DNA of 54,100 nt. Origin: an uncultured bacterium (lineage in GTDB: Bacteria; Muiribacteriota; UBA9980). Location of the stretch: assembly GCA_964421195.1 (NCBI GenBank), contig CAYQWL010000002.1, positions 16,801 through 70,900 of the forward strand. Direction: 5' to 3'. The translations under genes were made by a program, and so were the position numbers. The notes under the pieces are model-generated. The model was not told where the DNA came from. It ran no database searches and saw only the letters and a program-made list of their open reading frames with translations. Each line of letters starts with the position of its first letter. Within the stretch, counting starts at the first letter, position 1. This document shows, piece after piece, positions 32,395 to 51,931 of this stretch.

Positions 32395-32423
32395 TACATA
32401 CAATAAAATAAGGAGATAATATA

Positions 32424-33272
32424 ATGAAAAAAAAGAACGCCATACTTTCAATACTATTTTTATCCATGTTAATCCTGTTTTTTTGCCCGAACCGCTTTAT
32501 CGCCGCGCAGGCCGCCGGCGGCGGACTGACTGATGAAACCATAATATTAGCCACGACATACAGCGTTTTCGATACCGGTCTGTTAGACGAACTATTAAAA
32601 GAATTTAAAAGCAAAACCGGCATTTCCGTAAAACCTATCGTCGCAGGATCCGGCGAATCATTAAAACTCGGCGAACGCGGAGAATGCGATATAATTCTCG
32701 CTCATTCTCCGGCGCTCGAAGAAAAATTCATGGAAGAAAAATACGGTAAAGACCGCAAATCATTCGCCCGGAACGAATTTTATATAATAGGCCCGGAATC
32801 CGATCCGGCGGGCGTTAAAAACGCAGCCGATGTTTTTGCGGCTTTTGCCAGACTTGACAGCGCCGGCGTATTTATTTCACGCGGCGATAATTCTGGAACG
32901 CATAATCGTGAAATGTCTATATGGAAGAAAACTGGCGTTTCGAAAAAAGCAGGCTCAAATTACATAATAACGGGGCAGGGAATGGCTGAAACACTTAAAA
33001 TAGCGGATGAAAAACAGGCGTACACGCTCTGTGATTCAGCCACGTTTACCTATATGAATGAAAAGCTGACATTAAAAAAAATATACTCCGATATTAAAAA
33101 TTTATCAAATATTTACAGCGTTATTACAATAAATCCCGAAAAAAACAAACACGCAAAATACGAGCCCGCTAAAAAGTTATACGATTACATACTTTCGGCC
33201 GAAACGCTAAAATTCATAGGTGAATTTGGAAAAGAAAAATTCAATAAACCGCTTTTTAATTTAATGGAGTAA
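32424..33272 (+). CDS. tupA: Tungstate ABC transporter substrate-binding protein TupA (variant TTYS)
   Basis: LATTYSVFDTGLL, GSGESLKLGERGECD, FISRGDNSGTH, GQGM, YTLCD, NIYSVI; signal peptide; AGGAG SD. Confidence 0.88.
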   Translation: MKKKNAILSILFLSMLILFFCPNRFIAAQAAGGGLTDETIILATTYSVFDTGLLDELLKEFKSKTGISVKPIVAGSGESLKLGERGECDIILAHSPALEEKFMEEKYGKDRKSFARNEFYIIGPESDPAGVKNAADVFAAFARLDSAGVFISRGDNSGTHNREMSIWKKTGVSKKAGSNYIITGQGMAETLKIADEKQAYTLCDSATFTYMNEKLTLKKIYSDIKNLSNIYSVITINPEKNKHAKYEPAKKLYDYILSAETLKFIGEFGKEKFNKPLFNLME

Positions 33273-36009: not shown

Positions 36010-37355
36010 TCATACCACCCCGCTTTTTCCACTATAGAAATAAATTTTCCGCCGCGCGCGATAAATTTAGCGCAGGAATTCATTATCTCATCGGCATATC
36101 CCGTGGCAAATATTATAATAGTATTTATTTCACGATAATTTTCAAGAATTTCGGGAGCTTTTATAACGATATCAGAACCGGGAATGAATTTATCGTTATA
36201 AAAAGGATTCACGTCGATTACAAATTTTATATCGCCGGAGTCGAAATTGCATGCATTAATAAGTGAAACGCCCCGCTGCCCGGCGCCCCAACCGCATATC
36301 ACGGCGCCTTCACGTCTGGCGCCGGATATAAATTTCTTTAAATTATCATAATATGATTTCATTTCCGAAGCAAAAATCTTTAGCCTGTCAGGGCTTAGCA
36401 ATTCCGGCTCACAGGAAAATACGGGCGCGATATTAAAAACGGCATTTCGAGCGTAAATACTATCGTTAAAAACCGCGTATATTAAAACGGAACCGCCTTC
36501 GAGATTGTTTTTTACGGCTTCGATAACCTGTAAACCATGTTTTTCGAGAAGAAATTTAAGGTTCGTCAGGGAAAAATATGAAAGATGTTCATGAAAAAAA
36601 GCATAAAACTGTTTTTGCGCTATAATATCGCCGGCCCATGGGACTTCAAGCGCGAAAACCCCGTAAGAGCGATTAAGCAAACATTTAACGCCCCGCATAA
36701 CGGAATCGAAATCGTTTAAATGTTCGAGAACATGACGCATTATAATCACATCCGCGCACGCGCGGCCGGGAGATGATATTCCGCTTTCTTTAGAAGAAAC
36801 AGCGTACTTTAAAAATAATCGCGAAAGTTTCCGTACGGAGTCTTTAGTAAAATAATCATTTATTATATGCACATTCTCGCCGGCGGCGGCGCTCAATCCT
36901 GAAGAAGGCTCGAAACCCGAAGCGAAAACGCCGCGCGAGGCGAAACATTCAAGCAACGCGCCTTCACCGCAGCCAATTTCAACGGCCGAACAGGGTGAAA
37001 ATTTATTAATTATATCCGCGCAAAGCCATTCGGCGTATTTTTTAAAACCGCCGGCATAGGCCGGAGTATAAATATATTTTTTATAAATATCGGGAGGCAC
37101 TATATCTACGAGCTGGATCAACCCGCAGCGGCGGCAATAATAAACATCGAGCGGAAAGCATCTGCCGCCGGCGTCTTCATCTGATGCCGCCGGGGAATTT
37201 AAAAAAATACCGGCACGCCGGCCGTTTTCAATTTTAAGCGCGCGCGCGGGTTTATCAACCGGTTCACCCGCCAGCGCAGCCGCGGGAAGAGAAAGAAACA
37301 GCGATAAACTTTTTCCGCCGCAAAGACGGCATTTTTCATTTTTATCAAATATCAC
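36006..37355 (-). CDS. NDP-sugar C-methyltransferase-like SAM methyltransferase (Zn-binding N-terminus)
   Basis: CRLCG and CRRCGLIQL Zn sites, EIGCGEG, HVLEH, HEHLSYFS, C-terminal GWGAGQRG. Confidence 0.85.
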   Translation of the reverse strand: MIFDKNEKCRLCGGKSLSLFLSLPAAALAGEPVDKPARALKIENGRRAGIFLNSPAASDEDAGGRCFPLDVYYCRRCGLIQLVDIVPPDIYKKYIYTPAYAGGFKKYAEWLCADIINKFSPCSAVEIGCGEGALLECFASRGVFASGFEPSSGLSAAAGENVHIINDYFTKDSVRKLSRLFLKYAVSSKESGISSPGRACADVIIMRHVLEHLNDFDSVMRGVKCLLNRSYGVFALEVPWAGDIIAQKQFYAFFHEHLSYFSLTNLKFLLEKHGLQVIEAVKNNLEGGSVLIYAVFNDSIYARNAVFNIAPVFSCEPELLSPDRLKIFASEMKSYYDNLKKFISGARREGAVICGWGAGQRGVSLINACNFDSGDIKFVIDVNPFYNDKFIPGSDIVIKAPEILENYREINTIIIFATGYADEIMNSCAKFIARGGKFISIVEKAGWYD

Positions 37356-38568
37356 AACCGCCTCCGTCGGACATACGTTTTATAATATATTTCGATGCCT
37401 CGCACGATGAATTCATAAAATTATAAAGATAAATTTTCCGCAAGCGTTCAAACTCAGTTCGATATTCATTACGCCGCAGCATCAATTCTTCGATAGAAGA
37501 CAAAAGTAAGGAACGAACTTCGCCGGGTTTTATTATCTTTCCGCATAGCGGCCTTAATAAAAGCTCTACGGGCTCTAATTCGAGTTTTTCATATTCCTTA
37601 TTATCCACGCGGCATGGAGTGTCGATGAAAAGCGCCGGCCTTGAAGTACCGAAAGTATATTCCAGATATATTCCGGACCAATCGGTAATTAAAACATCTG
37701 CTTTATGAAGATTTTCATCTTTAAGCATATCGAGTTCAAGCGATATGTTTGAAATTGTCTCAATATAACGCGCTATTCGAGCAACGGCTCCGGGAAAACG
37801 TTTTATAAATTCAGGATGCGGCCTTATTACCGCATTAATATCAGGCGCATTCCTTAAACTTTCAATCATGTCGAATACCGCCGAATCGAGTATATTTCCA
37901 TCCGTCCAGGTAGGCGCTATCATTACCGAAATTTTTCTTCCGGCCGCGTCGCCGCCCGATACGCTTTGCATCCGTTCAAACTCGATATGATCTGAAAAAA
38001 TCTTTTCTATTCTATGATAACCGCATTCGACAAGTGTTTTGGATTTAAGGCCGTATATTTCTTCAGACCGGCGCAATTCGTTTTTTTGATGAGATCCGGT
38101 GCATAAAACGGCGTCATAATGATCGAACGCATTTTTACGATATTGAAGATGAGTGCTGCCGGCGGAATGAAAAACATATATATAATGAACCGGATTTATC
38201 GAACGTTTAATATAAAAATTATCAAGATCCGGCATTGTCATTAAAAAAACTTTAGAATCGAGATAAACCATAATAAAAGCAAGCAAATAATTTATATAAA
38301 ATGTCTTTATACCGCTTCCCGGATTTTTACGGGATTCAGAAATTTTCGCCGCCCGCGCGAATATGGAATCATTTATATCAGACGTAATATAAGCTATTTC
38401 AATATCATTATCAGCACGCAATAATTCGTTTATTATGCCTTCATAATACTGGTAATAAATATCGCTTTCCGAATAAAAAACGATGCGTCTGGCCTTCGCG
38501 GACGCCGCCGAAAAAAGCCTGACGCAATCTTTTATTTCTTTAATTAAATTAAAGAAACCTTTAAACAT
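37345..38568 (-). CDS. CDP-glycerol/polyol phosphotransferase family (TagB/TagF-like)
   Basis: YVFHS, ECGY, IAPTW, IRPHP, ADVLITDWSGIYLEY. Start set at ATG 38568 because the track start (38700) lies inside hydG. Confidence 0.8.
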   Translation of the reverse strand: MFKGFFNLIKEIKDCVRLFSAASAKARRIVFYSESDIYYQYYEGIINELLRADNDIEIAYITSDINDSIFARAAKISESRKNPGSGIKTFYINYLLAFIMVYLDSKVFLMTMPDLDNFYIKRSINPVHYIYVFHSAGSTHLQYRKNAFDHYDAVLCTGSHQKNELRRSEEIYGLKSKTLVECGYHRIEKIFSDHIEFERMQSVSGGDAAGRKISVMIAPTWTDGNILDSAVFDMIESLRNAPDINAVIRPHPEFIKRFPGAVARIARYIETISNISLELDMLKDENLHKADVLITDWSGIYLEYTFGTSRPALFIDTPCRVDNKEYEKLELEPVELLLRPLCGKIIKPGEVRSLLLSSIEELMLRRNEYRTEFERLRKIYLYNFMNSSCEASKYIIKRMSDGGGCDI

Positions 38569-39937
38569 AAATATCCCGTTCGCCCTTATCAAAGCGTTCG
38601 ATATATCCCGCAAAACGCTTCCGCTCTTCTTCTTCGAGCAATTCGTTTTTAAGTTTATCGATAAGCGCCATACCGATTTTTTTAGTATCAGGCGAAGCAA
38701 AATCTATTAAATACTCATAAAAAGTCAAAAGCCCATTTATATTACAGAATTCATGTATATGTCCCGTTTTAGAAAGCGCCATAAACGATTCTCCGGTTCG
38801 AAGACTGCGGTAACACGAAGTGCAAAACGACGGCAGAAAACCTTTAAAAGCAAGCGCCGATATTACCTCGTCGAGAGAACGCTCATCGGAAACGACGAAC
38901 TGCCCGGCGGCTTCTTTCGGATTGGAATAACCGCCGGGTTCAGTTTTAGAACCGGCGGAAAGCTGCGAAACGCCGAGAGTAACCAGTTCATCACGCAGTT
39001 CCGGAGCTTCACGCGTGGATAAAATCATTCCCGTATAAGGCACCGCAAGACGCAAAACGGCCACCGCTAATTTAAATTGTTCATCGGTAAGCCTGTATTT
39101 ATTCATATCGTTTATATCAAAACCGGCGGCCGGTTCAAGACGGGGAATCGAAATGGTATGCGGTCCGACGCCATACTTATCATCGAGATATTTAGCCTGG
39201 CTCAAAAGTGCGAGCGTTTCAAACTTATAATCATAAAGACCGTATAAAACACCTATTCCCACGTCATCAATGCCGGCCTGATAACATTTATCGAATATGC
39301 TTATACGCCTGTCATAATCTCTTTTAGGGCCGGATGGATGCATCTTCATATACGTTTCCCGGTGAAAAACCTCGTGAAATAGTTGATAAGTACCGATATT
39401 CGCATTTTTTATCTTTACGAGATCATCATGTTCGACCGGCGCTAAATTAACGTTAACGCGTCTGATTTTATTGCCTTTATAATCGACTTTATATATAGTT
39501 TCAATAGCGGCGGTAATATGATCCACGCCGCATTTATTTAAATCTTCGCCGGCGACGAGCAAAATACGTTTATGCCCGCTTTTTAATATATTTAAAGTCT
39601 CTTCCGCCACTTCTTCGAGGGAAAGAGTCTTACGGGCGATATCTTGATTGGATTTTTTAAAACCGCAATAAACGCAATTATTGATACAATAATTTGAAAT
39701 ATATAACGGCGCGAATAAAACCATACGCCTGCCGTATATTTTTTCTTTAACCGCCCGCGCGGCTTTTTTTATAGCGGCGATCATTTCAGAATCTTCACAA
39801 TTTAAAAGAACTGCCGCTTCTGATATTTTAAGCGGCTTCATTTCCATGCTCTTTTCTATTATGTTTAAAATCTCTGACCGGGCTGTATTTTTAGTCATTT
39901 CGATCGATTCGTTAATTTTATTTTCATCAATAACCAT
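38561..39937 (-). CDS. hydG: [FeFe]-hydrogenase H-cluster radical SAM maturase HydG
   Basis: FAPLYISNYCINNCVYCGF (CxxxCxxC), GTYQLFHE, DDVGIGVLYGL, GPHTISIPR, SAGSKT, C-terminal SFCTSCYR...FC auxiliary cluster. Start is 39937 or 39955. Confidence 0.97.
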   Translation of the reverse strand: MVIDENKINESIEMTKNTARSEILNIIEKSMEMKPLKISEAAVLLNCEDSEMIAAIKKAARAVKEKIYGRRMVLFAPLYISNYCINNCVYCGFKKSNQDIARKTLSLEEVAEETLNILKSGHKRILLVAGEDLNKCGVDHITAAIETIYKVDYKGNKIRRVNVNLAPVEHDDLVKIKNANIGTYQLFHEVFHRETYMKMHPSGPKRDYDRRISIFDKCYQAGIDDVGIGVLYGLYDYKFETLALLSQAKYLDDKYGVGPHTISIPRLEPAAGFDINDMNKYRLTDEQFKLAVAVLRLAVPYTGMILSTREAPELRDELVTLGVSQLSAGSKTEPGGYSNPKEAAGQFVVSDERSLDEVISALAFKGFLPSFCTSCYRSLRTGESFMALSKTGHIHEFCNINGLLTFYEYLIDFASPDTKKIGMALIDKLKNELLEEEERKRFAGYIERFDKGERDIYV

Positions 39938-39969
39938 AAAAACCCACCATTCCATTTCTAAGTGCGATA

Positions 39970-41481
39970 TTATTTATAAAGCGGCAGCCGGACTGTAAAC
40001 ACGCTTCCTTTCTGGTATTCACTATCAACGGTTACAGTTCCTTTCTGGGCCGTCACCAATTTTTTTACGACCGATAATCCAAGGCCGGTGCCGGATATTT
40101 TTGAAGTTTCTTTAGTCTTACACCTGAAAAACTCCGTAAACAATTTCGGCAGGTCTTCTTTTCTGATGCCGTAGCCTGTATCTTTAACGGATATTACGCC
40201 ATAACCGCCTTCACCGAAATAACTCACGCGTATTAAACCGCCTTCAGGCGTATATTTGATGGCGTTAGATATTAAATTATTAAGTATCATTTCCAGAGAT
40301 TTTCCATCGGCTAATATTTGATTATCAACCATTTTCAAATCTTTTTCCAGAATTATTTTTTTCTTTTTCATTTCCTGCGCAAAAAATTCAAGCACGTTTT
40401 CAAGTTTTTCAGTAATATCGACGGGTTTAATTTCAAGATTAAGACGATTGGTCTGATGCCGCGATATTTGAAGCAGATCGTTAACCATTTCAAGCAAAGT
40501 CTCCGAACGTTCTTTACAGCGGCCAAGTTTTTCAATGATTTTATCGCGGTCGGTTATATAACCGTCAAGTATCAAATAAATATATCCAAGCGAAGCGGAT
40601 ATCGGGGCTTTTATTTCATGCGCCACCATTGAAACAAACTGATTTTTAAGATTTTCTATTTCTTTAAGTTTGGTTATATCATTTAAAACAACGCAATAAC
40701 CTTCAATTTCATGATCGGTAACGACGGCCGCGCAGGTTGCCTGATAAAACATCTCGTTTATCCTTATTTCTTTTTGAATCATCGTAAGAGATTTATTTTC
40801 AATCATGGAATTAACGAGGGCCTTAATCTGATTAATAAATTCAGAATCGTAATCGGAAATTTTAGTATATAATTTTATTCTAACGTTTAAATCAATATTT
40901 TCAAAGCAAGGATTATAAAGCACTATTTCAAGCTTACTGTTTAATACTATAAGCGGATTGGCCATGCACTGAACTACGGTATGCATTTTTGACTTTTCCT
41001 GGCCGAGAATTTTAAGCGAACTTTCAGCTTCTTCTTTTAACTTTTTATTCTGTACAAGAAGCGTGCGGCGCGTCATAGATTTTTGAACCGCGTATAATAT
41101 TTGTTCAGGGCTGAAAGGTTTGGAAATAAAATCGAAAGCGCCGTGTTTAATGGAATTAACGGCGGTATCTATAGAAGAGTAAGCCGTAACCATAATAGGA
41201 ACGATAGTCGGATATAATTCATTTATGCGGGTAATAAATTCGATGCCGTCCATACCGTCCATTTTCATATCGACAACCGTTATATCGACGCCGGCATGAT
41301 TTTTTTCGAGATAATCGAGCGCTTCAAAGGCCGACGGAAAAGGAATCGCGTCATAGCCGTTTTTTCTGATAACTTTCGTAAGAGCGATTCTAAACTGATC
41401 TTCATCGTCTATTACCAGAATTCTACCTGAAAAATTTTGCGTATCCATGAGTGCTCCTTTTAAATCCGGTTTTATTTTCAA
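39970..41481 (-). CDS. Hybrid response regulator-histidine kinase (REC, PAS-like, HisKA, HATPase)
   Basis: ILVIDDE, VDMKMDGMDG, VAHEIKAP, NLISNAIKY, DTGYGI, GTGLGL. Confidence 0.93.
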   Translation of the reverse strand: MKIKPDLKGALMDTQNFSGRILVIDDEDQFRIALTKVIRKNGYDAIPFPSAFEALDYLEKNHAGVDITVVDMKMDGMDGIEFITRINELYPTIVPIMVTAYSSIDTAVNSIKHGAFDFISKPFSPEQILYAVQKSMTRRTLLVQNKKLKEEAESSLKILGQEKSKMHTVVQCMANPLIVLNSKLEIVLYNPCFENIDLNVRIKLYTKISDYDSEFINQIKALVNSMIENKSLTMIQKEIRINEMFYQATCAAVVTDHEIEGYCVVLNDITKLKEIENLKNQFVSMVAHEIKAPISASLGYIYLILDGYITDRDKIIEKLGRCKERSETLLEMVNDLLQISRHQTNRLNLEIKPVDITEKLENVLEFFAQEMKKKKIILEKDLKMVDNQILADGKSLEMILNNLISNAIKYTPEGGLIRVSYFGEGGYGVISVKDTGYGIRKEDLPKLFTEFFRCKTKETSKISGTGLGLSVVKKLVTAQKGTVTVDSEYQKGSVFTVRLPLYK

Positions 41482-41602
41482 AAATTTATAACTTTCGCTT
41501 TATCGCTTTTATTTATTTTATATCATATCCGCGATATATTCAAGTAAAAAAAACGATAATTATATAAAACCGGAAATACGTAAAACCGCCGCATTAAATG
41601 AA

Positions 41603-43606
41603 CTATCCGAGAAGCCCTGCGCTCAAATTAGATTTAACGGGTAAAGTTATCTTAAAAGTAGTGGATTCGCCATAAACACTATCGACGGTAATTTTACCTC
41701 GATGCATTTTTATTATCCCATAAACGACGGGCAATCCAAGTCCCGTTCCCTTGCCATAACCTTTAGTAGTAAAAAATGGAGTAAACAATTTCGGCATTTT
41801 ATCTTTAGGAATGCCGATACCGTTATCATTAAAAGATATTATGACTTCTTCATCATGTTTTACCACGTGCACATTAATAATTCCCGGAGAACGTTTAGCC
41901 TCGATCAAAGCGTCTTTCGAATTAGAAATCAAGTTAGTAAAAACCTGAAGCAGCGCCGTTTGATCGGCTTCGATAACAAGCGAATCAGGGCAATCGACTT
42001 TAATAGAAATATTAATGCCGATAGAAACATAATCATTTCTTATTTTAGTGCATAAGTCTTTTATAAAAGCGGAAAAATCAAATTCAATTATAGTAAGTTT
42101 ATTTTCTCTGGAAAAATTAAGCATTCCGGTTATAATTTCTTTAGTACGGTTAATTTCGCTAATAATAGTTTTAACGTCATCTTTCAGTTCGTCGTTTTCG
42201 ATCTGCTCGTTCAGCATGTGCGCATACAGCAGAACCGTGCCGAGAGGATTATTTATTTCATGCGCGACTCCGGCAGCCATCTGACCGAGCGAAACTAATT
42301 TTTCTTTCTGTATAAGCTCATTTTGCGTAGATTTAAGCATTTGATTCGACTGTTGTAACAAATTAAGATTTTCTTCAAGTTTTTCTATAACATAAGGCAG
42401 GCACATTTCTTTTTCGGCGAGGCCGGCTATTATAGCGCGCGCCTTGGCGCGGCACGAAGGATAACCGCATGCGCCGCAATTTAGTTCATCTTTAGGCTGG
42501 GTTTTTCCCATTTCTATAAGCACTTTTTTTATTTCCGCCGAATCGGCTTCTTTAATTTCCGATACTTCTTCCGATTCAAATACCACGCTTAAATCAATAT
42601 TTTTATATTTTTCAATTTCTATTTTCCAGCGTTGCTGATTACTTTGAGACATACGGCTTTTAATATATTCAGACATTTGAGATTTTTTTTCAAAATAATT
42701 AAGCTCGGAACATATTTTAGGACCGTCGATGCAGCCGAGGCAAAAGAGCATATCAATAAATTTACCGTCAAGCGAACCTTTTTTAATCGAATCGAGCACC
42801 ATTAAAACACGGTCTTTGCCCTCTGTAACTATAGTTTCGTTATCTACTATATCCTCAGTTTTTTCGGCGCATTTTAACAGCCCTCCGGTAACCGGGTAAA
42901 TAGCTCCAAGATTGGCGTGCGGCGGATCAAAATCGATTTTATTGAGCTTTTCTATATCAATTTTATTTTCAATAATCCATAACTTTAATTCTTCAAATGT
43001 AATAACGTAATCAATGTCACGGATATAATTGCTTCTTTCATCTATTTTCGCTATGCACGGCCCGATAAACGCGGTTCGGCGGCCGGGGTTTTTCAATCTG
43101 GCCACGCGCGCGGAAGCCACCATAGGGCTGACTATCGGCGCTAAATATTTGATCAATTCGGGCTCGTATTTTTGAACGTATTTAACTATGGCAGGGCATG
43201 GAGTTGCAATTACGGTTTTTCCTTTATTTTCGGAAAGATATTTTTTATAAGCCAGAGTTACGAGATCGGCGCCAAAACCCACTTCATAAACATTTTTAAA
43301 GCCAAGCGCCTTTAAAACGCTGACGAGTTTAACGCCCACGTCCATAAAACTTACGACAAAAGACGGCGCAACCAATGCGTCTATATCTTTAAACGCGATA
43401 TCATTTTTAAGTTCGTTAAAATATGAAAGCACCACTTTAGCGTTTTGCGAACAAACCGTAGTGCAATGGCCGCATGAAATACAACGGAAGCTGATAACGC
43501 TCGCCTTGCCGTCTTTAACTTTAATGGCATGCGCCGGGCAGCTTTTTATACATGCATAACATTTTTTACATTTCTCTCCGATAGTGGATACTACTGACAC
43601 GCTCAT
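41603..43606 (-). CDS. Sensory group C [FeFe]-hydrogenase-like domain fused to histidine kinase (HydS-HK)
   Basis: 2x[4Fe-4S] CKKCYACIKSC and CISCGHC; variant H-cluster motifs TPCP, GPCIAKIDE, MLFCLGCIDG; FeS domain NCGACGYPSC; AHEINNPL, NLISNS, DNGIGI, GTGLGL. Confidence 0.9.
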   Translation of the reverse strand: MSVSVVSTIGEKCKKCYACIKSCPAHAIKVKDGKASVISFRCISCGHCTTVCSQNAKVVLSYFNELKNDIAFKDIDALVAPSFVVSFMDVGVKLVSVLKALGFKNVYEVGFGADLVTLAYKKYLSENKGKTVIATPCPAIVKYVQKYEPELIKYLAPIVSPMVASARVARLKNPGRRTAFIGPCIAKIDERSNYIRDIDYVITFEELKLWIIENKIDIEKLNKIDFDPPHANLGAIYPVTGGLLKCAEKTEDIVDNETIVTEGKDRVLMVLDSIKKGSLDGKFIDMLFCLGCIDGPKICSELNYFEKKSQMSEYIKSRMSQSNQQRWKIEIEKYKNIDLSVVFESEEVSEIKEADSAEIKKVLIEMGKTQPKDELNCGACGYPSCRAKARAIIAGLAEKEMCLPYVIEKLEENLNLLQQSNQMLKSTQNELIQKEKLVSLGQMAAGVAHEINNPLGTVLLYAHMLNEQIENDELKDDVKTIISEINRTKEIITGMLNFSRENKLTIIEFDFSAFIKDLCTKIRNDYVSIGINISIKVDCPDSLVIEADQTALLQVFTNLISNSKDALIEAKRSPGIINVHVVKHDEEVIISFNDNGIGIPKDKMPKLFTPFFTTKGYGKGTGLGLPVVYGIIKMHRGKITVDSVYGESTTFKITLPVKSNLSAGLLG

Positions 43607-43699
43607 CCCGCCCCGTCATATAAAAAATGATCAGGCTCAAAGCGGGACGGCATATAACCGGCGCGCTTCGAGGCCTGATATATCAGGTGTTCGTTATTT

Positions 43700-44107
43700 T
43701 TAATGACCGTGAGAATTATTGACCGCGGTATTTAATATACCGTTGACCTTTTCAAGTAAAATACCGGGATTAATCGGTTTATCAAGAAACATATCCGCTT
43801 TGATCCATTGCCGTTCCTTGGCTTCGTTCAAATCGAACTGGATTTCAGATTCCTGATTAACCGAAGTAGCGAGTATAACCGGAACGTCGGGACGCGCTTT
43901 TTTAATTTTATAAGCGAGTATAAAACCGGCATCGTAAGTTTCCATAATTAAATCGAGTATTACGAGATCGGGGGTGAATTTTTCGAATTTTTCCCAGCCT
44001 TCCTCGCCGGTTTCAGCGGTTTCTATTGAATATCCATTAGATGATAATGTTTCCGTAATTATTTCCCTTACATCGGAATCGTCGTCAACTATCAATATTT
44101 TCTTCAT
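43700..44107 (-). CDS. Single-domain response regulator (REC)
   Basis: ILIVDDD, LVILDLIM, ILATS, LDKP. Confidence 0.93.
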   Translation of the reverse strand: MKKILIVDDDSDVREIITETLSSNGYSIETAETGEEGWEKFEKFTPDLVILDLIMETYDAGFILAYKIKKARPDVPVILATSVNQESEIQFDLNEAKERQWIKADMFLDKPINPGILLEKVNGILNTAVNNSHGH

Positions 44108-44109: not shown

Positions 44110-45831
44110 TTATTTATCCCCCTTATACCTTGTGTGTAATAGCTCGTGCGCGTCATGTTCGTTTATATGCTTTTCATAAAGTTCTTTAACGTCGGGATTT
44201 TCATGTGAACGGCGGATGACGGAATTTTCATCGACTTTATAAGTGGTTTTAGTTCGCGATTTCAAAAGATCGGCATCGGTGTTAAACGGCTGACCGGCGC
44301 CTCCAACGCAACCCGCGGGGCAGCTCATAATTTCGACGAAATGAAGATCGGATTTTCCGGCGGAAATATCTTCTAATATCTCTACGGCGTTTCCAAGCCC
44401 ATTCACGACGCCTACGTTAATCTTTGTTCCATCTATATCGACCGTGGCGCGTTTAATTCCGGCCATACCACGAACCGGCTTGCAATCGATATTTTCAAGT
44501 TCTTTTCCCGTAACCATATTATACGCGGTTCTGATAGCGGCTTCCATAACGCCGCCCGTCGCGCCGAATATTTTACCCGCGCCTGAGGCATGAGCGAAAG
44601 GCCTGTCAAAATCAGAACTCTGTATTTTTTCATATTGTATGCCGAATTCATCGAGCAGCGAAAACAGTTCACGCGTGGTTAAAACGGCATCCACATTGGC
44701 CATGCCTTCATTTTGAAGCTGAGGCCGAACTATTTCAGATTTTTTAGCGACGCAGGGCATTACCGATACCACAAAAAGATCTTTCGCTTTAACTTTCAAC
44801 AGTTTTTCACTGAGATGTTTAAGCAGCGCGCCCTTCATTATATGGGGCGATTTGCAGCTCGACAGATGTTTTGTATGCTTCGGATAAAACGTTTCAATAA
44901 AATTAATCCATGCGGGACAGCACGAAGTAAACATCGGAAGCGGCTTATGTTTTTTAGTCAGCCGTTCGACGAGTTCTTTAGCTTCTTCCATAATAGTTAT
45001 ATCCGCCGCCGTACAGGTGTCAAAAACAAAATCAACGCCTATGCCGCGCAACGCGCCGATTATTTTACCGACAGCCTCTTCGACCGGTATCGATTTTTTA
45101 AAATATTCTGGAAATGTTACATGACATGCGGGCGCGAATTGAAAAGCCACCTTTTTTCCAGGATTGATTATCGCATCGATAACCGTTTTTTTATGAGGAA
45201 TTTCACGTAAAGCGCCGACGGGGCAAGCCATAATACACTGTCCGCAGGAAACGCAATTACCTTCAGCGAGAGATTTATAACTTCCCGGCGCTACATGCGT
45301 GCTGAAGCCGCGATTAGCGAAATCAATAGCCGACACTCTTTGCTTTTCGGCGCATACGGTAACGCAGCGGCCGCAAAGTATGCATTTCGCCATATCGCGT
45401 TCAACGGCGGGCGACGCTTTATCGATAACCATTTTCTTTTTAGCTCCGCCCTTAAAGGCGACTTCGTCAACGCCGTATTGTTTTGAAAGATCCTGCAACA
45501 GGCAATTTCCGCTTTTTGAACATGTAAGGCAGTCCTGTGGATGGTTAGAAAGTAAAAGTTCGATTATTTTCTTACGCGACATTCTAACCTGCGGCGAATC
45601 GGTGCGCACCTGCATTCCAGCTTCGGCCGGATACGAACAGGAAGCTATAAGGCGGCCGGTTTTAACGTCTTCGACCACGCAGATCCGGCATGCGCCTGAA
45701 GGCTTATAGCCTTCCATATAACAGAGTGTTGGAATAAACAGGCCGGCTTTTTTAGCAACCTGATAGATAGTTTCGCCTTTAATAAACTCGACTTCTTTAT
45801 TATTTATTGTCATTTTCAATTTCGTCTTCAC
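44110..45831 (-). CDS. hydA: [FeFe]-hydrogenase catalytic subunit HydA (group A, multimeric/bifurcating type)
   Basis: [2Fe-2S] C..GACRIC, His-ligated HPQDCLTC, 2x[4Fe-4S], canonical L1 TSCCPAW, L2 MPCVAKKSE, L3 EIMSCPAGCVGG; small-subunit RRSHENP...LLHT. Confidence 0.97.
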   Translation of the reverse strand: MKTKLKMTINNKEVEFIKGETIYQVAKKAGLFIPTLCYMEGYKPSGACRICVVEDVKTGRLIASCSYPAEAGMQVRTDSPQVRMSRKKIIELLLSNHPQDCLTCSKSGNCLLQDLSKQYGVDEVAFKGGAKKKMVIDKASPAVERDMAKCILCGRCVTVCAEKQRVSAIDFANRGFSTHVAPGSYKSLAEGNCVSCGQCIMACPVGALREIPHKKTVIDAIINPGKKVAFQFAPACHVTFPEYFKKSIPVEEAVGKIIGALRGIGVDFVFDTCTAADITIMEEAKELVERLTKKHKPLPMFTSCCPAWINFIETFYPKHTKHLSSCKSPHIMKGALLKHLSEKLLKVKAKDLFVVSVMPCVAKKSEIVRPQLQNEGMANVDAVLTTRELFSLLDEFGIQYEKIQSSDFDRPFAHASGAGKIFGATGGVMEAAIRTAYNMVTGKELENIDCKPVRGMAGIKRATVDIDGTKINVGVVNGLGNAVEILEDISAGKSDLHFVEIMSCPAGCVGGAGQPFNTDADLLKSRTKTTYKVDENSVIRRSHENPDVKELYEKHINEHDAHELLHTRYKGDK

Positions 45832-45837: not shown

Positions 45838-47658
45838 TCACTCCTTCACGATAGCTGAGAATTTACATGTGCTCAGGCAGAGCAGACAGCCTGTGCATTT
45901 ATCGGCCGCGATAACATAAGGCGTGCCGGGCTTTCCGTAAATCGCGCCCTGCGGGCATTTACGAGCGCAAAGACTGCATCCTCTACATTTTTCGGTAACT
46001 ATAACGCATTTAACCATCGATGAGCAAACGTGAGTGGGGCATTTTTTTTCAAAAATATGAGCTTCATATTCGTCACGAAAATGTTTGAGCGTGGATAAAA
46101 CCGGGTTGCTCGCGGTCTGTCCGAGGCCGCAGAGCGAACTATTTTTAATAACTGAACATAGTTCTTCGAGTTCGAGAACGCCTTTAAATCTAAGAAGCTC
46201 ATCGGAAGATTTTTTCTGATTCGACACATTGAGCACTATTCTATCGAGTATTTCATAAAGCCTTTTCGTGCCTTCACGGCAGGGGATACATTTACCGCAG
46301 GATTCGTTCTGGATAAAATTCATGAAAAAACGAGCCACATCGACCATACAGGTGGTATCGTCCATTACGACCATACCGCCGGAGCCCATTATTGCGCCGT
46401 TTTCTTTAAGAGATTCATAAGTTATTTTAGTATCCATAAGTTTTTCCGGCATACATGCGCCGGAAGGGCCGCCGATCTGTACGGCTTTAAATTTACGGCC
46501 TTCAGGAACGCCGCCGGCTATATCGTTAATCAGGGTCCTCAATGTAATTCCCATCGGCACTTCTATAAGGCCGGAATATTTAACGCGGCCCGTTACGGCA
46601 AAAACTTTCGTGCCGAGCGATTTTCCTTCGCCGAACGCCGCGAATTTAGAGGAGCCTTCACGCAATATCCAGGGAACGTTAGCAAAAGTTTCGACGTTAT
46701 TAATAACGGTCGGCTTACCAAAAAGGCCTTTTTCGGCAGGATATGGCGGGCGCGGAGTCGGCATTCCACGTTTACCTTCTATAGAAGCGAGAAGCGCGGT
46801 TTCTTCACCGCATACAAAAGCTCCTGCGCCCTTTTTAACTTTAAGTTCAAAGCAAAACTTAGAATTAAGAATATTTTTACCGAGCACGCCTTTTTCTTTA
46901 CACTGCTTGATAGCGTTTTCGAGGCGTTCGATAGCGAGCGGATATTCGGCCCTCGCATAAATATATCCGAAAGAAGCGCCGATAGCGTAAGCGCCGATAA
47001 TTATACCTTCTATAACTCTGAACGGATCGCTTTCGAGCACGGCGCGATCCATAAACGCGCCGGGATCGCCTTCGTCGGCGTTCATAACTATATATTTTTT
47101 ATTACCAGGCTGTTTATACGCCAGGTCCCATTTAATGGAAGTCGGAAACCCGCCGCCGCCGCGGCCCCTTAATCCGGATTTTTTTATCTCGTCTATAACA
47201 TCCTCCGGTTTCATAGCTGAAAGCACTTTCTTTAAAGCCACGAATCCAAGAGCTTTTGAATAATCATCAAACGAATAAGGGTTTATTATACCGCAATTTT
47301 CAAGCGCCACTCTTTTTTGACGGGCAAAATAAGGCGTTTCATAAACGCATGGCATATTCGGAGTTTTTTTATAAGTGCCGAGAAGCCATTTATTGGAATA
47401 ATTTTTATTATCGATCATTTCGATTAAAAACTCGGTAACGTTTTGAGGAGTTATTTCGCAATAAGCCATACGCGGCATGGAAGAAAATTCGAAATCGACC
47501 ATAACCTCGCGCGAGCAATAACCGATACAACCGACCGGTATCATTTCAAAAGCCATTTTACGAACATCGAGAAAATCTTCGATTGTTTTTTTTATTTCGA
47601 GCGCTCCCTGCGCAAGACCGCAGGTACCCATCCCGATATATACCTTTAACTTATCCAT
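45838..47658 (-). CDS. hydB: NADH-binding flavin subunit HydB (NuoF-like)
   Basis: N-terminal thioredoxin-like FeS, SGLRGRGGGGFPT, NADEGDPGAFMDR, GAFVCGEET, ESCGKCIPCREG, C-terminal 2x[4Fe-4S]; GGAGG SD. Confidence 0.96.
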   Translation of the reverse strand: MDKLKVYIGMGTCGLAQGALEIKKTIEDFLDVRKMAFEMIPVGCIGYCSREVMVDFEFSSMPRMAYCEITPQNVTEFLIEMIDNKNYSNKWLLGTYKKTPNMPCVYETPYFARQKRVALENCGIINPYSFDDYSKALGFVALKKVLSAMKPEDVIDEIKKSGLRGRGGGGFPTSIKWDLAYKQPGNKKYIVMNADEGDPGAFMDRAVLESDPFRVIEGIIIGAYAIGASFGYIYARAEYPLAIERLENAIKQCKEKGVLGKNILNSKFCFELKVKKGAGAFVCGEETALLASIEGKRGMPTPRPPYPAEKGLFGKPTVINNVETFANVPWILREGSSKFAAFGEGKSLGTKVFAVTGRVKYSGLIEVPMGITLRTLINDIAGGVPEGRKFKAVQIGGPSGACMPEKLMDTKITYESLKENGAIMGSGGMVVMDDTTCMVDVARFFMNFIQNESCGKCIPCREGTKRLYEILDRIVLNVSNQKKSSDELLRFKGVLELEELCSVIKNSSLCGLGQTASNPVLSTLKHFRDEYEAHIFEKKCPTHVCSSMVKCVIVTEKCRGCSLCARKCPQGAIYGKPGTPYVIAADKCTGCLLCLSTCKFSAIVKE

Positions 47659-47808: not shown

Positions 47809-48969
47809 TTAATGCGCCGCGGCCTGACTTTTATTAGAATCTTTTTCATTAAGATAATCGACTTTAAGCTTATCTACTATTGCAAGAGTCTTTGCGACGT
47901 CGAGATGCCCGTAAAATTTATCATTAATCATAATAACCGGCGCGATAGAGCACGCGCCAAGGCAGGCGACCTGCTGAAGTGAAAATATTTTATCGCGGGT
48001 AGTCTGACCGACCTCTATCTTTAAATGCTCTTTAAGCGCATTTAATATATTAAGAGAGCCTTTAACGTGACATGCGGTGCCGCGGCATACGGCTATTTGA
48101 AAATGCCCCGGCGGAGTGAGTTTAAATTGATTATAAAAAGTCGCCACTCCATATACTTTAGAATCGGCTATACCGAGATATTCCGAAATTTTGATTATAT
48201 CGTCTTTCGAGATATAACCTCTTATATCCTGAACATCCTGCAATATTGGAATTAAGTTATCCCTTGATTTAGCGTATTTATTAAACGCCTCATAAATTCG
48301 TTTTTCGATGTCACCGTTAACCATTTCAATTTTCCCTCCATTGTTTCTATAGTTGTTCAGATTAATTTGATATGACAGGAACATATAACTTGCGGCCAGA
48401 TTCTCGTTTTTAACGATCGCGTCGTCCGGCAGTTTTAAATGAACCGGCGCGAAATTCCAGAAATAACGAACACCAAGTTCATATAATTTAGCCGCTACTT
48501 TAGCCGCGCCATTCGCGGGCAATGTCAAAACGGCAAGCTTAACGCCAAGCGTACTGATTACTTCTGAAAGATTGTCAAGCGGTAATATTTTAAAAGTTTC
48601 AACCGTAGTGCCGATAACCTGTGGTGAATGATCGAATATCGCGACTATTTTCAAACCGTAATTAAAAAAATTCGAATAATTACTCACGGCCCTGCCAAGG
48701 TTGCCGGCCCCGATGACTATCGCTTTATTAACGGTAGTCGTACCAAGAACCATTTTAATCGCCGAAATAAATTCATTTATTTCATAGCCCTTATTAGGCT
48801 TTCCATTCAAATTAAGAAATGAAAGGTCTTTTTTTATATTATTCTGGTCTATAAAAAAATGTTTTGAAAGAATCGACGAGCTTATAAATTCATGGCCCTG
48901 CTCTTTTAAATGACACGCTAACTGAAGATACCTGGGCAATCTTTCAACGATTCTAAGACTGAAATCCAT
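47809..48969 (-). CDS. rex-hydC: In-frame fusion of redox-sensing repressor Rex (aa ~1-205) and HydC/NuoE-like [2Fe-2S] subunit (aa 216-386)
   Basis: Rex: ERLPRY, IKKDLS, GKPNKGY, GAGNLGRA, NFAP. HydC: LIPILQDVQ, VATFYNQF, VCRGTACHVKG, CLGACSIAPV. No stop codon between the two parts. Confidence 0.9.
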   Translation of the reverse strand: MDFSLRIVERLPRYLQLACHLKEQGHEFISSSILSKHFFIDQNNIKKDLSFLNLNGKPNKGYEINEFISAIKMVLGTTTVNKAIVIGAGNLGRAVSNYSNFFNYGLKIVAIFDHSPQVIGTTVETFKILPLDNLSEVISTLGVKLAVLTLPANGAAKVAAKLYELGVRYFWNFAPVHLKLPDDAIVKNENLAASYMFLSYQINLNNYRNNGGKIEMVNGDIEKRIYEAFNKYAKSRDNLIPILQDVQDIRGYISKDDIIKISEYLGIADSKVYGVATFYNQFKLTPPGHFQIAVCRGTACHVKGSLNILNALKEHLKIEVGQTTRDKIFSLQQVACLGACSIAPVIMINDKFYGHLDVAKTLAIVDKLKVDYLNEKDSNKSQAAAH

Positions 48970-49495: not shown

Positions 49496-49942
49496 ATGTT
49501 AGAAAAAGTGAAAATCCTGCTTGCCGAAGACGATTTGAAAACAGCTTCATTAATTTACGAGCTGCTTTCTTCGAACTCCATCTACGAAATAAAGTGGGTA
49601 GAAAACGGGGCTGTAGCGGTAGAATCCGCTCTCAAAGAGAAGTTCGATATTATTTTCATGGACATTCAAATGCCGGTAATGGACGGCATCGAAGCCGTTA
49701 AAAAGCTTCGTTCTTCGGGCTATTCAGGCTTAATAGTCGCCCTGACAGCTTATTTTGAAAAAGAAAGATGCATGGCCGCCGGAATGAACGATTATATTCA
49801 AAAACCCTTTTCCATAAAAGATTTCATAAAAAAAATGAATGAAATAAATTATAAAAAAGGCGCAAACGAAGAACTGCGCCCCGCCTCGCCGCTTGAGCAG
49901 AGCGAAGCGCCCGTCGATCTTGAAAAATTTTTAAATCAATAA
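49496..49942 (+). CDS. Single-domain response regulator (REC)
   Basis: ILLAEDD, IIFMDIQMPVMDG, ALTA, YIQKP. Confidence 0.93.
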   Translation: MLEKVKILLAEDDLKTASLIYELLSSNSIYEIKWVENGAVAVESALKEKFDIIFMDIQMPVMDGIEAVKKLRSSGYSGLIVALTAYFEKERCMAAGMNDYIQKPFSIKDFIKKMNEINYKKGANEELRPASPLEQSEAPVDLEKFLNQ

Positions 49943-49969
49943 TATCAACGGTAATGGAACCGGGCGGCA

Positions 49970-50791
49970 ATGAACGAAAGATTCAATTTTGACAATTATG
50001 TTGACAGGGCATACGTAACCGGCAATATGCTCTTAGAAGCCGGCGAGCATGACCGCGCGCTCGAATGTTTCAATAAAGCTCTTGAATTAGACGAAGGATT
50101 TACCTGCGCCATGTTTCATAAAGGATTAGCTTTAGTGAACCTCAAGCGTTATGACGAAGCTATATGCTGCTACAATATGCTTCTTGACATAGACCCGAAA
50201 GACACAGGAGTGCTCGAACACAAGGGCGTCGCGCTCATTGAAATAAATCATTACGAAGAAGCCGCGAAATGCTATAAAAAACTTCTCGAATTAGAGCCTG
50301 ACAATTCCCGCGCATATCTAAAAATGGGGCATATTTATCAAATATATGGCAATTACAAAGAAGCCTTATCATATTTTGACAAATCGCTCGAATTAAATTA
50401 CGGCGACAGGCGGGCCTGGTATCTTAAAGGCATCGTTCTTGCCGAGCAGGGTTTACTTTCCTCGATAAAACATAAATTCAACGAAGCGCTTAAATGTTTT
50501 GAAAAAGCTTTAGAATGCGCCCCACGCGATACGGACGTATTAAAGGACAAAGCTAAGGTTCTGACTTATCTCGGCGACAACGAACGCGCTCTTATAATCT
50601 ATCATAAAATCAGCGATATAATTCCCGGCGATCCTATCGCCATTACCGCTCTTGCAAAACTTTACAAAAAAATGAACCGTCTCGAAGATTCGTTAGCATA
50701 TTACAAAAAACTTCTCGAAATAAATACGGATACAACCATAACCGCCGAAATAGAATATCTTACCAACCGCCTCAAAAACAAACATTATTAA
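49970..50791 (+). CDS. Tetratricopeptide repeat protein
   Basis: Repeated A..C[FY].KALEL.P/ KG.AL motifs at about 34-aa spacing. Confidence 0.92.
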   Translation: MNERFNFDNYVDRAYVTGNMLLEAGEHDRALECFNKALELDEGFTCAMFHKGLALVNLKRYDEAICCYNMLLDIDPKDTGVLEHKGVALIEINHYEEAAKCYKKLLELEPDNSRAYLKMGHIYQIYGNYKEALSYFDKSLELNYGDRRAWYLKGIVLAEQGLLSSIKHKFNEALKCFEKALECAPRDTDVLKDKAKVLTYLGDNERALIIYHKISDIIPGDPIAITALAKLYKKMNRLEDSLAYYKKLLEINTDTTITAEIEYLTNRLKNKHY

Positions 50792-51007
50792 TATGTATTT
50801 TTAATATTCATAACGCGGCTTATCTAACATACAATCCCGGCCACGCCGTCCGGCCGCATTATCTTATCCGGCCTTTAAAATTTTTCACACCTCAAAATTT
50901 CAATCACAAACAATTCTATAAGCTTATTAAACTTATTTATAAGCTTAAATTATAAACTTAATTAACAAGTTTTTAATAAGCCCATTACTAAAATTCAAAA
51001 TTTTTCA

Positions 51008-51036
51008 TTGACAAAAGGCCCGCGATTATCTATAAT
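51008..51036 (+). promoter_or_regulatory. Consensus sigma-70 promoter
   Basis: TTGACA-N17-TATAAT perfect match upstream of the 51134 gene. Confidence 0.75.
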
Positions 51037-51133
51037 ACATTATGTATATGTATCGAAAATATTACAGCATTCGTACCGAATGATTTAATATTAATAACAT
51101 GCAAACAAGCAACATCTCATTCAGGAGGAACAA

Positions 51134-51919
51134 ATGTATTTATTTAATTCTAAAAAAATCAAACTCTCCCTGTTAACCGCCGCGGTATTCATTTTTACGC
51201 TTGCATTAACCACCGGCGCATACGCCGCCGAAAAAATAAGCCTTGAATATAAATATAAGCCAGGCGATAAGTTTAAATACGACATTACAATGGACGGCAA
51301 AACCATTATGGAAACCGCCGGCAATAAAGGCGAAGCTCCGGTGGACGTTAAAATGCAAATAGAACAGAATGTTTTATTCGTAAACAAAAAAAACGGCAAT
51401 ATTGATATACAGACGAAAATACTGTCAGGAAAAGCCAGAAACGCCGAAGGCGCATTCGAAGACCTTAAAAATGTCGGCAATACTGTTTATATGACCATAA
51501 CGAAACGCGGAGAACTGCTCGGAGCCACTTCTTATGATTCAAATTACGATCCCATATCGGTATCGATCAGTTTTCCTGAAGGCCCGATAGAAGTCGGAAA
51601 AAAATGGTCCACCGAAGTAAAGCAGCCTATTCCAATGAAAATCAACTATCAACTTAAAGAATTAAGAACGATTAAAGGCCGTAAATGCGCCGTTATAGAA
51701 CAAAATATAGAAGTCGAAGCCGGCGTTAAAAATATCGCCGCGAAAGGCAGCGGCAAAATATTTTTTGACATCGAAAAGGGCCAGATGGTAATGGTAGAAA
51801 CTACGAACGACATGAAGATGGACCAGCAAATAGAAAACGACTCACCAAACCTCGGACCGGCCGTAAAAAAAGTTAAAACAACCGTAAATCTTAAAACAAA
51901 GATGGAACTAATCAAATAA
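51134..51919 (+). CDS. Secreted beta-rich hypothetical protein (DUF6263-like)
   Basis: AGGAGG SD; signal ...TGAYA; LEYKYKPGDKFKY, FPEGPIEVGKKW, IFFDIEKG. The family name is tentative. Confidence 0.65.
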   Translation: MYLFNSKKIKLSLLTAAVFIFTLALTTGAYAAEKISLEYKYKPGDKFKYDITMDGKTIMETAGNKGEAPVDVKMQIEQNVLFVNKKNGNIDIQTKILSGKARNAEGAFEDLKNVGNTVYMTITKRGELLGATSYDSNYDPISVSISFPEGPIEVGKKWSTEVKQPIPMKINYQLKELRTIKGRKCAVIEQNIEVEAGVKNIAAKGSGKIFFDIEKGQMVMVETTNDMKMDQQIENDSPNLGPAVKKVKTTVNLKTKMELIK

Positions 51920-51931
51920 ATATGGAATAAA

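Follow-up and report, generated by a model that had tools for sequence, protein, structure and literature searches.

A putative H2-sensing kinase module within a bifurcating-type [FeFe]-hydrogenase operon of an uncultured Muiribacteriota bacterium

The characterised sensory [FeFe]-hydrogenases TmHydS and TamHydS bind the H-cluster, react with H2, and lack both the proton-relay cysteine and the glutamates of the proton pathway, and a Cx2Cx4Cx16C motif has been described for the sensory enzymes of types M2e and M2f (PMC8163306). Reviews and a 2026 study of TamHydS still treat the sensory role of such hydrogenases as putative and their signalling partners as unidentified, and the 2026 study closes by asking for these partners (PMC13104023). 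Here, we analyse a 54,100-nucleotide (nt) stretch of DNA from an uncultured bacterium of the Muiribacteriota (contig CAYQWL010000002.1, positions 16,801 to 70,900; hereafter the window), in which a hydrogenase-like domain is fused to a histidine kinase – HydS-HK – and is encoded together with a single-domain receiver (REC_s) and a second kinase (REC-PAS-HK) among the genes of a HydABC-type hydrogenase. With a probability of roughly 0.55, we propose that the product of this locus is a phosphorelay of two soluble, cytoplasmic kinases, through which H2, or the H2/H+ redox couple, is reported to the adjacent HydABC machinery.

Kinase-fused hydrogenases have been encountered before. In HydDB, group C1 stands for ‘histidine kinase-linked (putative)’ and group C3 for ‘phosphatase-linked’ (PMC5037454), and in a 2024 survey of Hydrogenedentota a HydDB run assigned proteins of the same architecture and position as HydS-HK to group C3, as ‘BfuT’ of a sub-type V BfuABC shared with Caldithrix abyssi; the C1 proteins of that survey have an N-terminal HATPase_c domain and no recognisable H-cluster motifs (PMC11406978). 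An earlier interpretation of the window from its letters alone (the sequence-only reading) had labelled the sensor group C1, which is doubtful given that kinase-fused homologues run through HydDB are reported as C3 (PMC11406978). The Ignavibacterium album genome paper describes two hydrogenase clusters and does not describe their regulators, and our literature searches (group C1 with response regulator; HydS with two-component) turned up nothing on the REC and REC-HK partners.

Seven genes lie in one direction on the minus strand, in the following order as judged from open reading frames (ORFs) and Pfam:

47809..48969, minus strand: rex-hydC fusion, first gene of the operon; 386 amino acids (aa), with a complete Rex (~4-206) followed by a complete NuoE-like HydC (~220-370)
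45838..47658, minus strand: hydB, NuoF-like flavoprotein with C-terminal 2x[4Fe-4S]; Complex1_51K 4.7e-46, NADH_4Fe-4S 6.4e-31, Fer4
44110..45831, minus strand: hydA, catalytic group A [FeFe]-hydrogenase; Fe_hyd_lg_C 3.4e-85, Fe_hyd_SSU, Fer2_4, NADH-G
43700..44107, minus strand: REC_s, single-domain receiver, 135 aa; Response_reg 1.5e-20
41603..43606, minus strand: HydS-HK, the sensor kinase, 667 aa (665 aa in the database copy, which starts 2 residues later)
39970..41448 (ORF to 41481), minus strand: REC-PAS-HK, second kinase; Response_reg 7.2e-26, HisKA, HATPase_c
38561..39955, minus strand: hydG, H-cluster radical-SAM maturase; NCBIfam equivalog TIGR03955, 505 bits against a cutoff of 312

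From rex-hydC to hydG the genes are separated by 150, 6, 2, 93, 121 and 14 nt, and the succession of hydA, REC, hydrogenase-HisKA-HATPase, REC-PAS-like-HisKA-HATPase and hydG that the sequence-only reading had laid out is confirmed, coordinates included, by ORFs, Pfam and NCBIfam. HydA belongs to TIGR02512 (454 bits against a cutoff of 406 in NCBIfam) and has the canonical L1-L3 motifs TSCCPAW, MPCVAKKSE and EIMSCPAGC; together with a NuoF-like HydB carrying extra iron-sulphur (FeS) sites and a NuoE-like HydC in the same operon, this is the gene content of electron-bifurcating HydABC (group A3), and the enzyme is predicted to be of that type. Scans of the operon for internal terminators and promoters stayed at the level of shuffled sequence, with no convincing internal terminator. 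The placement of hydG differs among relatives, adjoining the other genes in some and not in others.

The central component is HydS-HK, in which the sequence supports the fusion of a complete histidine kinase to an H-cluster pocket that is intact and of non-catalytic type. Its parts are:

43439..43579, minus strand: N-terminal 2x[4Fe-4S] ferredoxin domain (Fer4 families), with invariant Cys 13, 16, 19, 23, 42, 45, 48 and 52
42719..43378, minus strand: H-domain, from alignment to the window HydA, Foldseek and invariant columns
42395..42484, minus strand: C-terminal [4Fe-4S] motif Cx2Cx4Cx16C (Cys377, 380, 385 and 402; PF04060)
42203..42400, minus strand: helix 403-468, comprising the signalling helix and DHp alpha1, in an AlphaFold2 (AF2) model
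41633..42289, minus strand: transmitter of NtrB/AtoS/ZraS type (HisKA 440-501, HATPase_c 548-658)

Pfam reports Fer4, Fe_hyd_lg_C (5.8e-42), PF04060 FeS (3.8e-10), HisKA (5.2e-14) and HATPase_c (4.3e-24) in this protein. The non-catalytic-type motifs noticed in the sequence-only reading – TPCP, GPCxxKxxE and MLFC.GC – are indeed there, and align with L1-L3 of HydA as AT-P-C137-P, G-P-C184-IAK187-IDE190 and DML-F-C289-LG-C292. In the alignment to the window HydA, with the relay and pathway residues in CpI numbering (Cys299, Glu279/Glu282, Met353, Met497), Pro136 takes the place of the proton-relay cysteine, glycine that of M353 and leucine that of M497, and the group A proton-pathway glutamates are absent, ‘TLAYKKYL’ standing in place of ‘TIMEEAKEL’. 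Across 64 homologues at ~45% identity, Cys137, Cys184, Cys289, Cys292, Lys187 and Glu190 are invariant, and so are the cysteines of the Fer4 domain (eight) and of the C-terminal site (four), the motifs A-P-S and S-P, and the kinase boxes H449, N562, D594xGxG and G620xGxG (H, N, G1 and G2). The cluster ligands, the loss of the relay, and the FeS sites at both the N- and C-terminal ends of the hydrogenase part are those of a HydS-type sensory [FeFe]-hydrogenase; the PAS domain that follows the C-terminal cluster in M2f (classical group C) enzymes, and defines them, is absent.

The AF2 model (mean pLDDT 87, pTM 0.68) has a hydrogenase-like fold over the N-terminal 400 residues, for which the top Foldseek matches are CbA5H, DdH, CpI and HydA (E ~1e-19 to 1e-20), and the C-terminus matches ZraS (TM 0.76 on the target). 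ZraS is likewise the closest relative of the transmitter in the PDB (4.9e-31), as are AtoS (6.6e-53) and ZraS (1.7e-47) in NCBIfam, and the conserved boxes and predicted DHp helices 403-468 and 472-501 are those of a Class I HisKA kinase. A sensor without PAS or transmembrane domains, as the sequence-only reading described it, is borne out: Pfam gives no PAS hit, the model shows a lone continuous helix 403-468 entering the DHp domain, and no membrane segment is found, the maximum hydropathy (KD(19)) being 1.73 and lying within a globular beta-strand. Membrane anchoring was rejected on that low maximum.

The same unbroken predicted helix links Cys402, the last cluster cysteine, to the phospho-acceptor His449. 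The spacing between these two residues in 120 HydS-HK homologues is either 47 residues (77 proteins) or 40 (43 proteins), and nothing else. A quantum of one heptad is what a rigid coiled-coil signalling helix requires, and we take this stepwise spacing as the strongest indication from sequence of a mechanical coupling between cluster domain and kinase.

The arrangement is widespread. The HydS-HK architecture is present in thousands of database proteins, and at least 588 of the scanned species-representative genomes encode a relative. We annotated 85 loci by ORF calling and by phmmer with the domains of the window, and synteny is counted here over the loci with enough flank. The hydA gene is directly upstream of HydS-HK in 62 of 75 loci, a REC-HK gene follows within 2.5 kb downstream in 68 of 71, and a small receiver adjoins HydS-HK in 63 of 71, with receiver and REC-HK both present in 60; eight loci have HydS-HK and REC-HK without the small receiver, and three have HydS-HK and REC_s without REC-HK. 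Precomputed Pfam annotation gives the same layout in three distant contigs, from Ignavibacteriales, Sedimentisphaerales and another lineage. The loci carry more than 12 phylum-level labels given by submitters: Ignavibacteria/Bacteroidota, KSB1, Calditrichia, Planctomycetota, Nitrospirota, Hydrogenedentota, Acidobacteriota, Spirochaetota, Verrucomicrobia, Lentisphaerae, Caldisericia, Armatimonadota, Myxococcota and others. HydS-HK of the two Hydrogenedentota loci (L070 and L072) has ~41% identity to that of the window. Because 60 of the 71 informative loci share this synteny over many phyla, the gene arrangement is far beyond chance. Co-inheritance of the three signalling genes with hydCBA across phyla is supported by these counts, and the trio of the window is by its gene content an ordinary instance for its family, a widespread putative H2-sensing kinase module.

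In most genomes REC_s comes after HydS-HK, at a median gap of 13 nt and often with overlapping stop and start codons. The lineage of the window (with loci L001, L004 and L007, 76-85% identical) has REC_s before HydS-HK instead, abutting hydA. Two loci that also have HydS-HK encode, upstream of hydC, a further protein (L064:789-2537 and L085:998-2572) with an N-terminal RsbW-like HATPase_c_2, Fer4, a degenerate H-domain that has lost the L2 lysine, and a C-terminal FeS motif; from these features, the two proteins probably correspond to the type reported as C1 without H-cluster motifs (PMC11406978).

The second kinase, REC-PAS-HK, comprises four domains:

41086-41421, minus strand: REC (Asp71), referred to below as REC_n
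40666-41049, minus strand: divergent PAS
40450-40647, minus strand: HisKA (His288)
39976-40308, minus strand: HATPase

Its true start is probably Met12 (41448), because an AAAGGAG ribosome-binding site is located there and the relatives have 490 aa. D26, D71, K121, H288, N406 and the G-boxes are invariant in 71 orthologues. The middle region falls below the Pfam threshold in the window protein and is homologous to the middle of the orthologues (hhalign 99.2%, E 2.4e-19), 49 of the 71 of which match PAS models (best E-value 3.4e-15), and the NCBIfam model PnpS spans residues 134-500 with the PAS region included; a profile of the window-lineage middle domain gave no significant match in the PDB. 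The term ‘PAS-like’, used in the sequence-only reading, is justified by this transitive homology. REC_n is closest to the receivers of DctD, NtrC and HupR (HupR 1.2e-14), and the transmitter to WalK, SrrB, VicK and HK853 in the PDB and to PnpS, WalK and PhoR in NCBIfam.

REC_s starts 2 nt past hydA and retains the residues of phosphorylation chemistry (Asp8/9/10, the acceptor Asp52, Thr81 and Lys110-Pro111). It also has a subfamily signature, D-L-x-M-E..D.GF with Trp101 and Asp105, which is kept in 87 orthologues neighbouring HydS-HK genes. Its best library matches are TrrA, RR468 and YycF, together with the receivers of RpaB, MtrA, OmpR and PhoB, and Pfam finds no output domain. In all four loci of the window lineage the gap from hydA to REC_s is -1 to 2 nt. 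A similar closeness is seen in loci of the Ignavibacteria type, where a second hydrogenase operon is headed by a paralogous receiver, REC’ (DVMMD..D.GF), and has a further kinase; the gap between REC’ and the hydC that follows it there has a median of 2 nt, and is at most 15 nt in 36 of 37 cases. These loci of Ignavibacteria/Melioribacter type (L008-L010, L015-L017, L019, L020, L023-L025 and others, e.g. L009:13909-19428) have the trio and then the second set, in which REC’, 1-2 nt before hydC’, is followed by a short HydB’ (~400 aa, without extra FeS sites), HydA’ (~638 aa) and a histidine kinase (~480 aa).

A multi-step relay tied to the hydrogenase is the most economical interpretation of these genes, because an H-cluster pocket is fused to a kinase, the catalytic residues are conserved (~70 orthologues), and the genes are co-inherited with hydCBA. 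With the corrections given here, the relay put forward in the sequence-only reading is the best interpretation, its order and its H2 trigger being putative. Kinases of the AtoS/ZraS class serve NtrC-type regulators. Matching by family class – consistent in two independent libraries, PDB and NCBIfam – suggests, with moderate strength, that the transmitter of HydS-HK (HK1) serves REC_n and that of the second kinase (HK2) serves REC_s, and the eight loci with HydS-HK and then REC-HK but no small receiver point to the kinase-to-kinase link as the core of the system.

In the mechanism that we envisage, binding and oxidation of H2 at a slow, sensor-type H-cluster would alter the redox state or conformation of the H-domain and the C-terminal cluster domain, and this change would pass down the coiled coil as a shift of register or rotation, altering the balance of autokinase and phosphatase activities of HydS-HK in either direction. 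The phosphoryl group would then be transferred from HydS-HK to Asp71 of the NtrC-type REC_n, gating the WalK/PhoR-type kinase of REC-PAS-HK, which would phosphorylate Asp52 of the OmpR-type REC_s. Most likely, REC_s would act by protein contact on HydABC, on the HydC subunit fused to Rex, or on one of the kinases; an output of this kind is favoured because REC_s has no output domain and is translationally coupled to the structural genes of the hydrogenase, and the short gaps both from hydA to REC_s and from REC’ to hydC would link the small receivers with the proteins of the hydrogenase and not with DNA. Transcription of the operon may be tied separately to NADH/NAD+ through the Rex domain of Rex-HydC. 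No locus has a DNA-binding response regulator inside the trio, and the sequence-only reading, in stating that a DNA-binding regulator is missing, is right about 39970-44107 and wrong about the operon, which has a complete Rex fused to HydC. A bolder extension, which we regard as distinctly speculative and doubtful, is that the REC_s-type receivers and the paralogues before the second hydC are phosphorylation-dependent partners of the bifurcating hydrogenase or of Rex-HydC, such that H2 would throttle the enzyme post-translationally via the two-kinase cascade, the signal being mechanical from a [4Fe-4S] ligand down the heptad-locked coiled coil to the phospho-histidine.

The sequence-only reading had included the receiver at 49496 among three REC domains to be checked for phosphotransfer. 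As a third member of the relay it was rejected: that receiver has the canonical DxxMPxMDG motif, is not conserved with the module, and heads a cyclase operon, to which it belongs. The operon in question (49496-53941, plus strand) is divergent and encodes the receiver (148 aa), a TPR protein (273 aa), a 261-aa protein, and a 669-aa class III adenylate/guanylate cyclase protein; in L004 it is not conserved with the hydrogenase relay.

Several points weigh against the phosphorelay proposed here. For the kinase-fused members we infer H-cluster insertion, reactivity with H2 and H2-dependent kinase activity alike, and in TamHydS 1 atm H2 does not reduce the C-terminal cluster (PMC13104023), so that a simple redox switch at this cluster is unlikely. 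Covariation (weighted mutual information with average product correction; 68 loci, Neff 56) does not discriminate among pairings, the sums of the ten highest corrected scores (MIp) being alike, 3.06-3.30, for each DHp domain against each receiver; the top HK1-REC_n pairs (His463 and Gly494 with Phe30) are on canonical contact positions and are not counted as evidence. The common gene order – HydS-HK, REC_s, REC-HK – would conventionally pair HydS-HK with REC_s, and the suggested link from REC_s to HydABC or Rex is a putative one. Co-transcription of the operon finds no support in public runs, the sequence being present only in wastewater DNA runs and in no RNA run, and neither hydE nor hydF is in the 54-kb window.

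The common gene order speaks for a branched pathway, in which HydS-HK would phosphorylate REC_s directly and REC-PAS-HK would be a second, PAS-gated input on the same receiver, or mainly its phosphatase. The 13-nt median gap and many overlaps of HydS-HK and REC_s fit such a pathway, as do the three loci that have this pair without REC-HK, and the partners of TrrA and RR468 – ThkA and HK853 – are also good matches of HK1; we nonetheless consider it somewhat unlikely, in that matching by class would rather pair HK1 with REC_n and HK2 with REC_s, the eight loci without REC_s retain REC-HK, and REC_s in the window lineage is 93 nt from HydS-HK and coupled to hydA instead. What HydS-HK senses may also be questioned. 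It could be a sensor of redox state or electron flux rather than of H2, docking on HydABC (as a ‘BfuT subunit’) or exchanging electrons with ferredoxin via its N-terminal clusters, and reporting how far the ferredoxin/NADH pool is reduced or how the enzyme turns over, with the H-domain persisting solely as a structural relic or reference electrode. This would suit its three accessory [4Fe-4S] sites, its place directly after hydA in 62 of 75 loci, its naming as the T subunit of BfuABC (PMC11406978), the unresponsiveness of the TamHydS C-terminal cluster to H2 (PMC13104023), and the attachment of Rex, an NADH sensor, to the same operon. However, H-cluster ligands and a CN-binding lysine that are invariant over ~45% sequence divergence are difficult to reconcile with a relic, genes for hydG or hydEFG are often adjacent, and the characterised PAS-type relatives bind an active H-cluster (PMC8163306), and a redox sensor of this kind is in our judgement unlikely.

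A serious rival at the output end, though again an improbable one, is a transcriptional response via an unlinked regulator: REC_s would be a phosphate sink or connector in the style of LovR or a CheY sink, and the real output an orphan DNA-binding response regulator encoded elsewhere, e.g. an NtrC-type sigma54 activator as in HoxJ-HoxA. REC_s has no effector domain, NtrC-type regulators are the natural partners of kinases of the AtoS/ZraS class of HK1, and loci of KSB1 type, of Planctomycetaceae and of Bdellovibrionales have regulators with a REC-AAA-HTH_8 architecture immediately ahead of hydCBA. Yet most loci have no NtrC-type regulator within 10 kb and the 54-kb window has neither such a regulator nor a sigma54 promoter (a search found none upstream of the operon, and fewer hits than expected by chance), and the REC_s subfamily is more distinct, more strongly conserved and more tightly coupled to hydrogenase genes than a generic sink needs. 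That HydS-HK is simply a slow catalytic hydrogenase, its kinase genes being mere neighbours with an unrelated target, recalls the low catalytic activity kept by TmHydS and TamHydS (PMC8163306), but is hardly credible for a protein whose kinase is covalently fused through a length-quantised helix and whose whole gene set is syntenic with hydCBA across phyla. The two-kinase phosphorelay addressed to HydABC is the reading that we retain. The NtrC-type regulators upstream of hydCBA, candidates for a transcriptional output in their own lineages, are:

L074:3723-5090: NtrC-type sigma54 activator (REC-AAA+-HTH_8)
L059:1997-3316: NtrC-type sigma54 activator (REC-AAA+-HTH_8)
L061:3684-5060: NtrC-type sigma54 activator (REC-AAA+-HTH_8)
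L081:222-1619: NtrC-type sigma54 activator (REC-AAA+-HTH_8)
L068:3-1139: NtrC-type sigma54 activator (REC-AAA+-HTH_8)

The first gene of the operon is itself unusual. Pfam finds Put_DNA-bind_N and CoA_binding and then 2Fe-2S_thioredx in Rex-HydC, whose Rex part scores 195 (NF003994), 189 and 174 bits with the NCBIfam Rex equivalogs (cutoffs 130, 138 and 126) and whose HydC part scores 151 bits with NuoE NF005722 (cutoff 141). In the PDB, residues 4-205 match Rex 3wg9 (6.3e-34) and residues 224-370 match TmHydC 7p5h_C (2.5e-39), and both the winged-helix N-domain and the Rossmann NAD(H) domain of a Rex repressor are present. Rex is encoded upstream of hydC in 16 of 67 loci, fused in the window lineage only and as a separate rex gene in 13 other loci. 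Among 5.8 billion proteins, the fusion is represented by ~20 clusters (67-100% identity, some labelled Candidatus Wallbacteria) and two distant ones (~33%), and is a rare, lineage-specific addition. Two features precede the gene:

49044-49016, minus strand: sigma70-like promoter TTGACA-17-TATCAT upstream of rex-hydC, the best of the region (promoter scan 11/12) and the only strong site
49011-48995, minus strand: conserved 17-nt element ATAGTGAAAAAAATAAC, right downstream of the -10

The element, (T/A)TAGTGAAAAAAATAAC, is identical in four relatives – including L001, L004 and L007, where it is upstream of rex-hydC – save for the first base in the window, and its flanks have diverged. It occurs once in the window and may be a degenerate Rex operator, its half-sites resembling degenerate Rex half-sites. 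The canonical Rex operator TTGTGAAnnnnTTCACAA was not found near the promoter at up to 3 mismatches, and its 3 hits elsewhere in the window are at chance level.

Several neighbouring genes complete the picture of the window. The longest ORF of a glycerophosphotransferase-like gene (37345-38700, minus strand) overlaps hydG by 140 nt; its true start is probably just past hydG, because relatives are annotated at 445 aa. At 29405-33272 on the plus strand, a Moco/tungsten riboswitch (76.7 bits) precedes an aldehyde-dehydrogenase-family gene, a 370-aa gene and a gene for a PBP_like_2 solute-binding protein, and L001 and L004 have the same three genes close to their hyd cluster. The plus strand at 6590-9904 encodes a LanM-like class II lanthipeptide synthetase (DUF4135 1.7e-96, LANC_like 2.6e-59).

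The value of the locus is as an experimental entry point to bacterial H2 sensing and not as a new kind of system. In the kinase-fused form the readout, autophosphorylation, is on the same polypeptide as the sensor, so that a search for the partner is unnecessary, and genes for the two proteins that would act next in the pathway adjoin that for HydS-HK in at least several hundred species. If the proposed relay is real, it would account for the way in which fermenters and syntrophs of digesters, sediments and wastewater adjust a confurcating hydrogenase to the partial pressure of H2, and would offer a self-contained H2-to-phosphorylation module useful as a biosensor part.

Among systems under transcriptional control, the Rex regulons of hydrogenase genes share a complete Rex with the window, where Rex is fused to HydC and accompanied by a degenerate element only. 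The [NiFe] sensors HoxBC-HoxJ-HoxA and HupUV-HupT-HupR (HydDB group 2b) resemble the window, by analogy only, in running from a low-turnover H2 sensor through a histidine kinase to hydrogenase genes; the receiver REC_n resembles that of HupR, and loci of some relatives are flanked by NtrC-type regulators. In the Hox and Hup systems, however, the metal site is an unrelated [NiFe] one, sensor and kinase are separate proteins joined via a PAS-like domain, and an NtrC-type regulator that binds DNA forms the output, whereas the window has a sensor-kinase fusion with a second kinase after it and no DNA-binding response regulator in the locus. The window encodes no NiFe subunits and no NtrC-type regulator, and with its fused kinase does not qualify as a [NiFe] regulatory hydrogenase system.

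For the wiring, the nearest parallel is the Che3 cascade of Rhodospirillum centenum, in which transfer from CheA3 to the receiver of CheS3 (a REC-PAS-HK) and on to CheY3 is experimentally proven, with only the second kinase phosphorylating the regulator (PMC3868531). Components of all these types are present here – a second kinase with an intact-Asp receiver, PAS and HisKA-HATPase, and a single-domain regulator – and the likeness is one of component architecture, the wiring of the window being predicted rather than measured. The input of the Che3 cascade is a chemoreceptor/CheA kinase and its output is cyst development, so that the likeness extends to wiring only.

The closest relatives of the sensor itself are TmHydS (group C, M2f) and TamHydS (group D, M2e), which share with HydS-HK the N-terminal 2x[4Fe-4S] domain, an H-domain without the relay, replacement of Met353 and Met497, the Cx2Cx4Cx16C motif and a place beside a HydABC operon. 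TmHydS has a PAS domain at its end and TamHydS stops after the cluster, whereas the cluster domain of HydS-HK runs directly into a DHp-CA kinase, and the substitutions of HydS-HK are mixed: glycine as in TmHydS, leucine as in TamHydS, and proline instead of alanine or serine at the relay position. BfuT has the same architecture as HydS-HK and the same place directly after the gene for the catalytic subunit; the paper describing it treats the protein as an extra subunit, and response regulators, REC_s and REC-PAS-HK, quantisation of the linker and the Rex fusion are absent from it (PMC11406978). The fusion of sensor and kinase, and its synteny with bifurcating hydrogenases, are thus already known from comparative genomics; a putative relay of three conserved proteins, its wiring as matched by class, and a linker locked to heptads appear to be described here for the first time.

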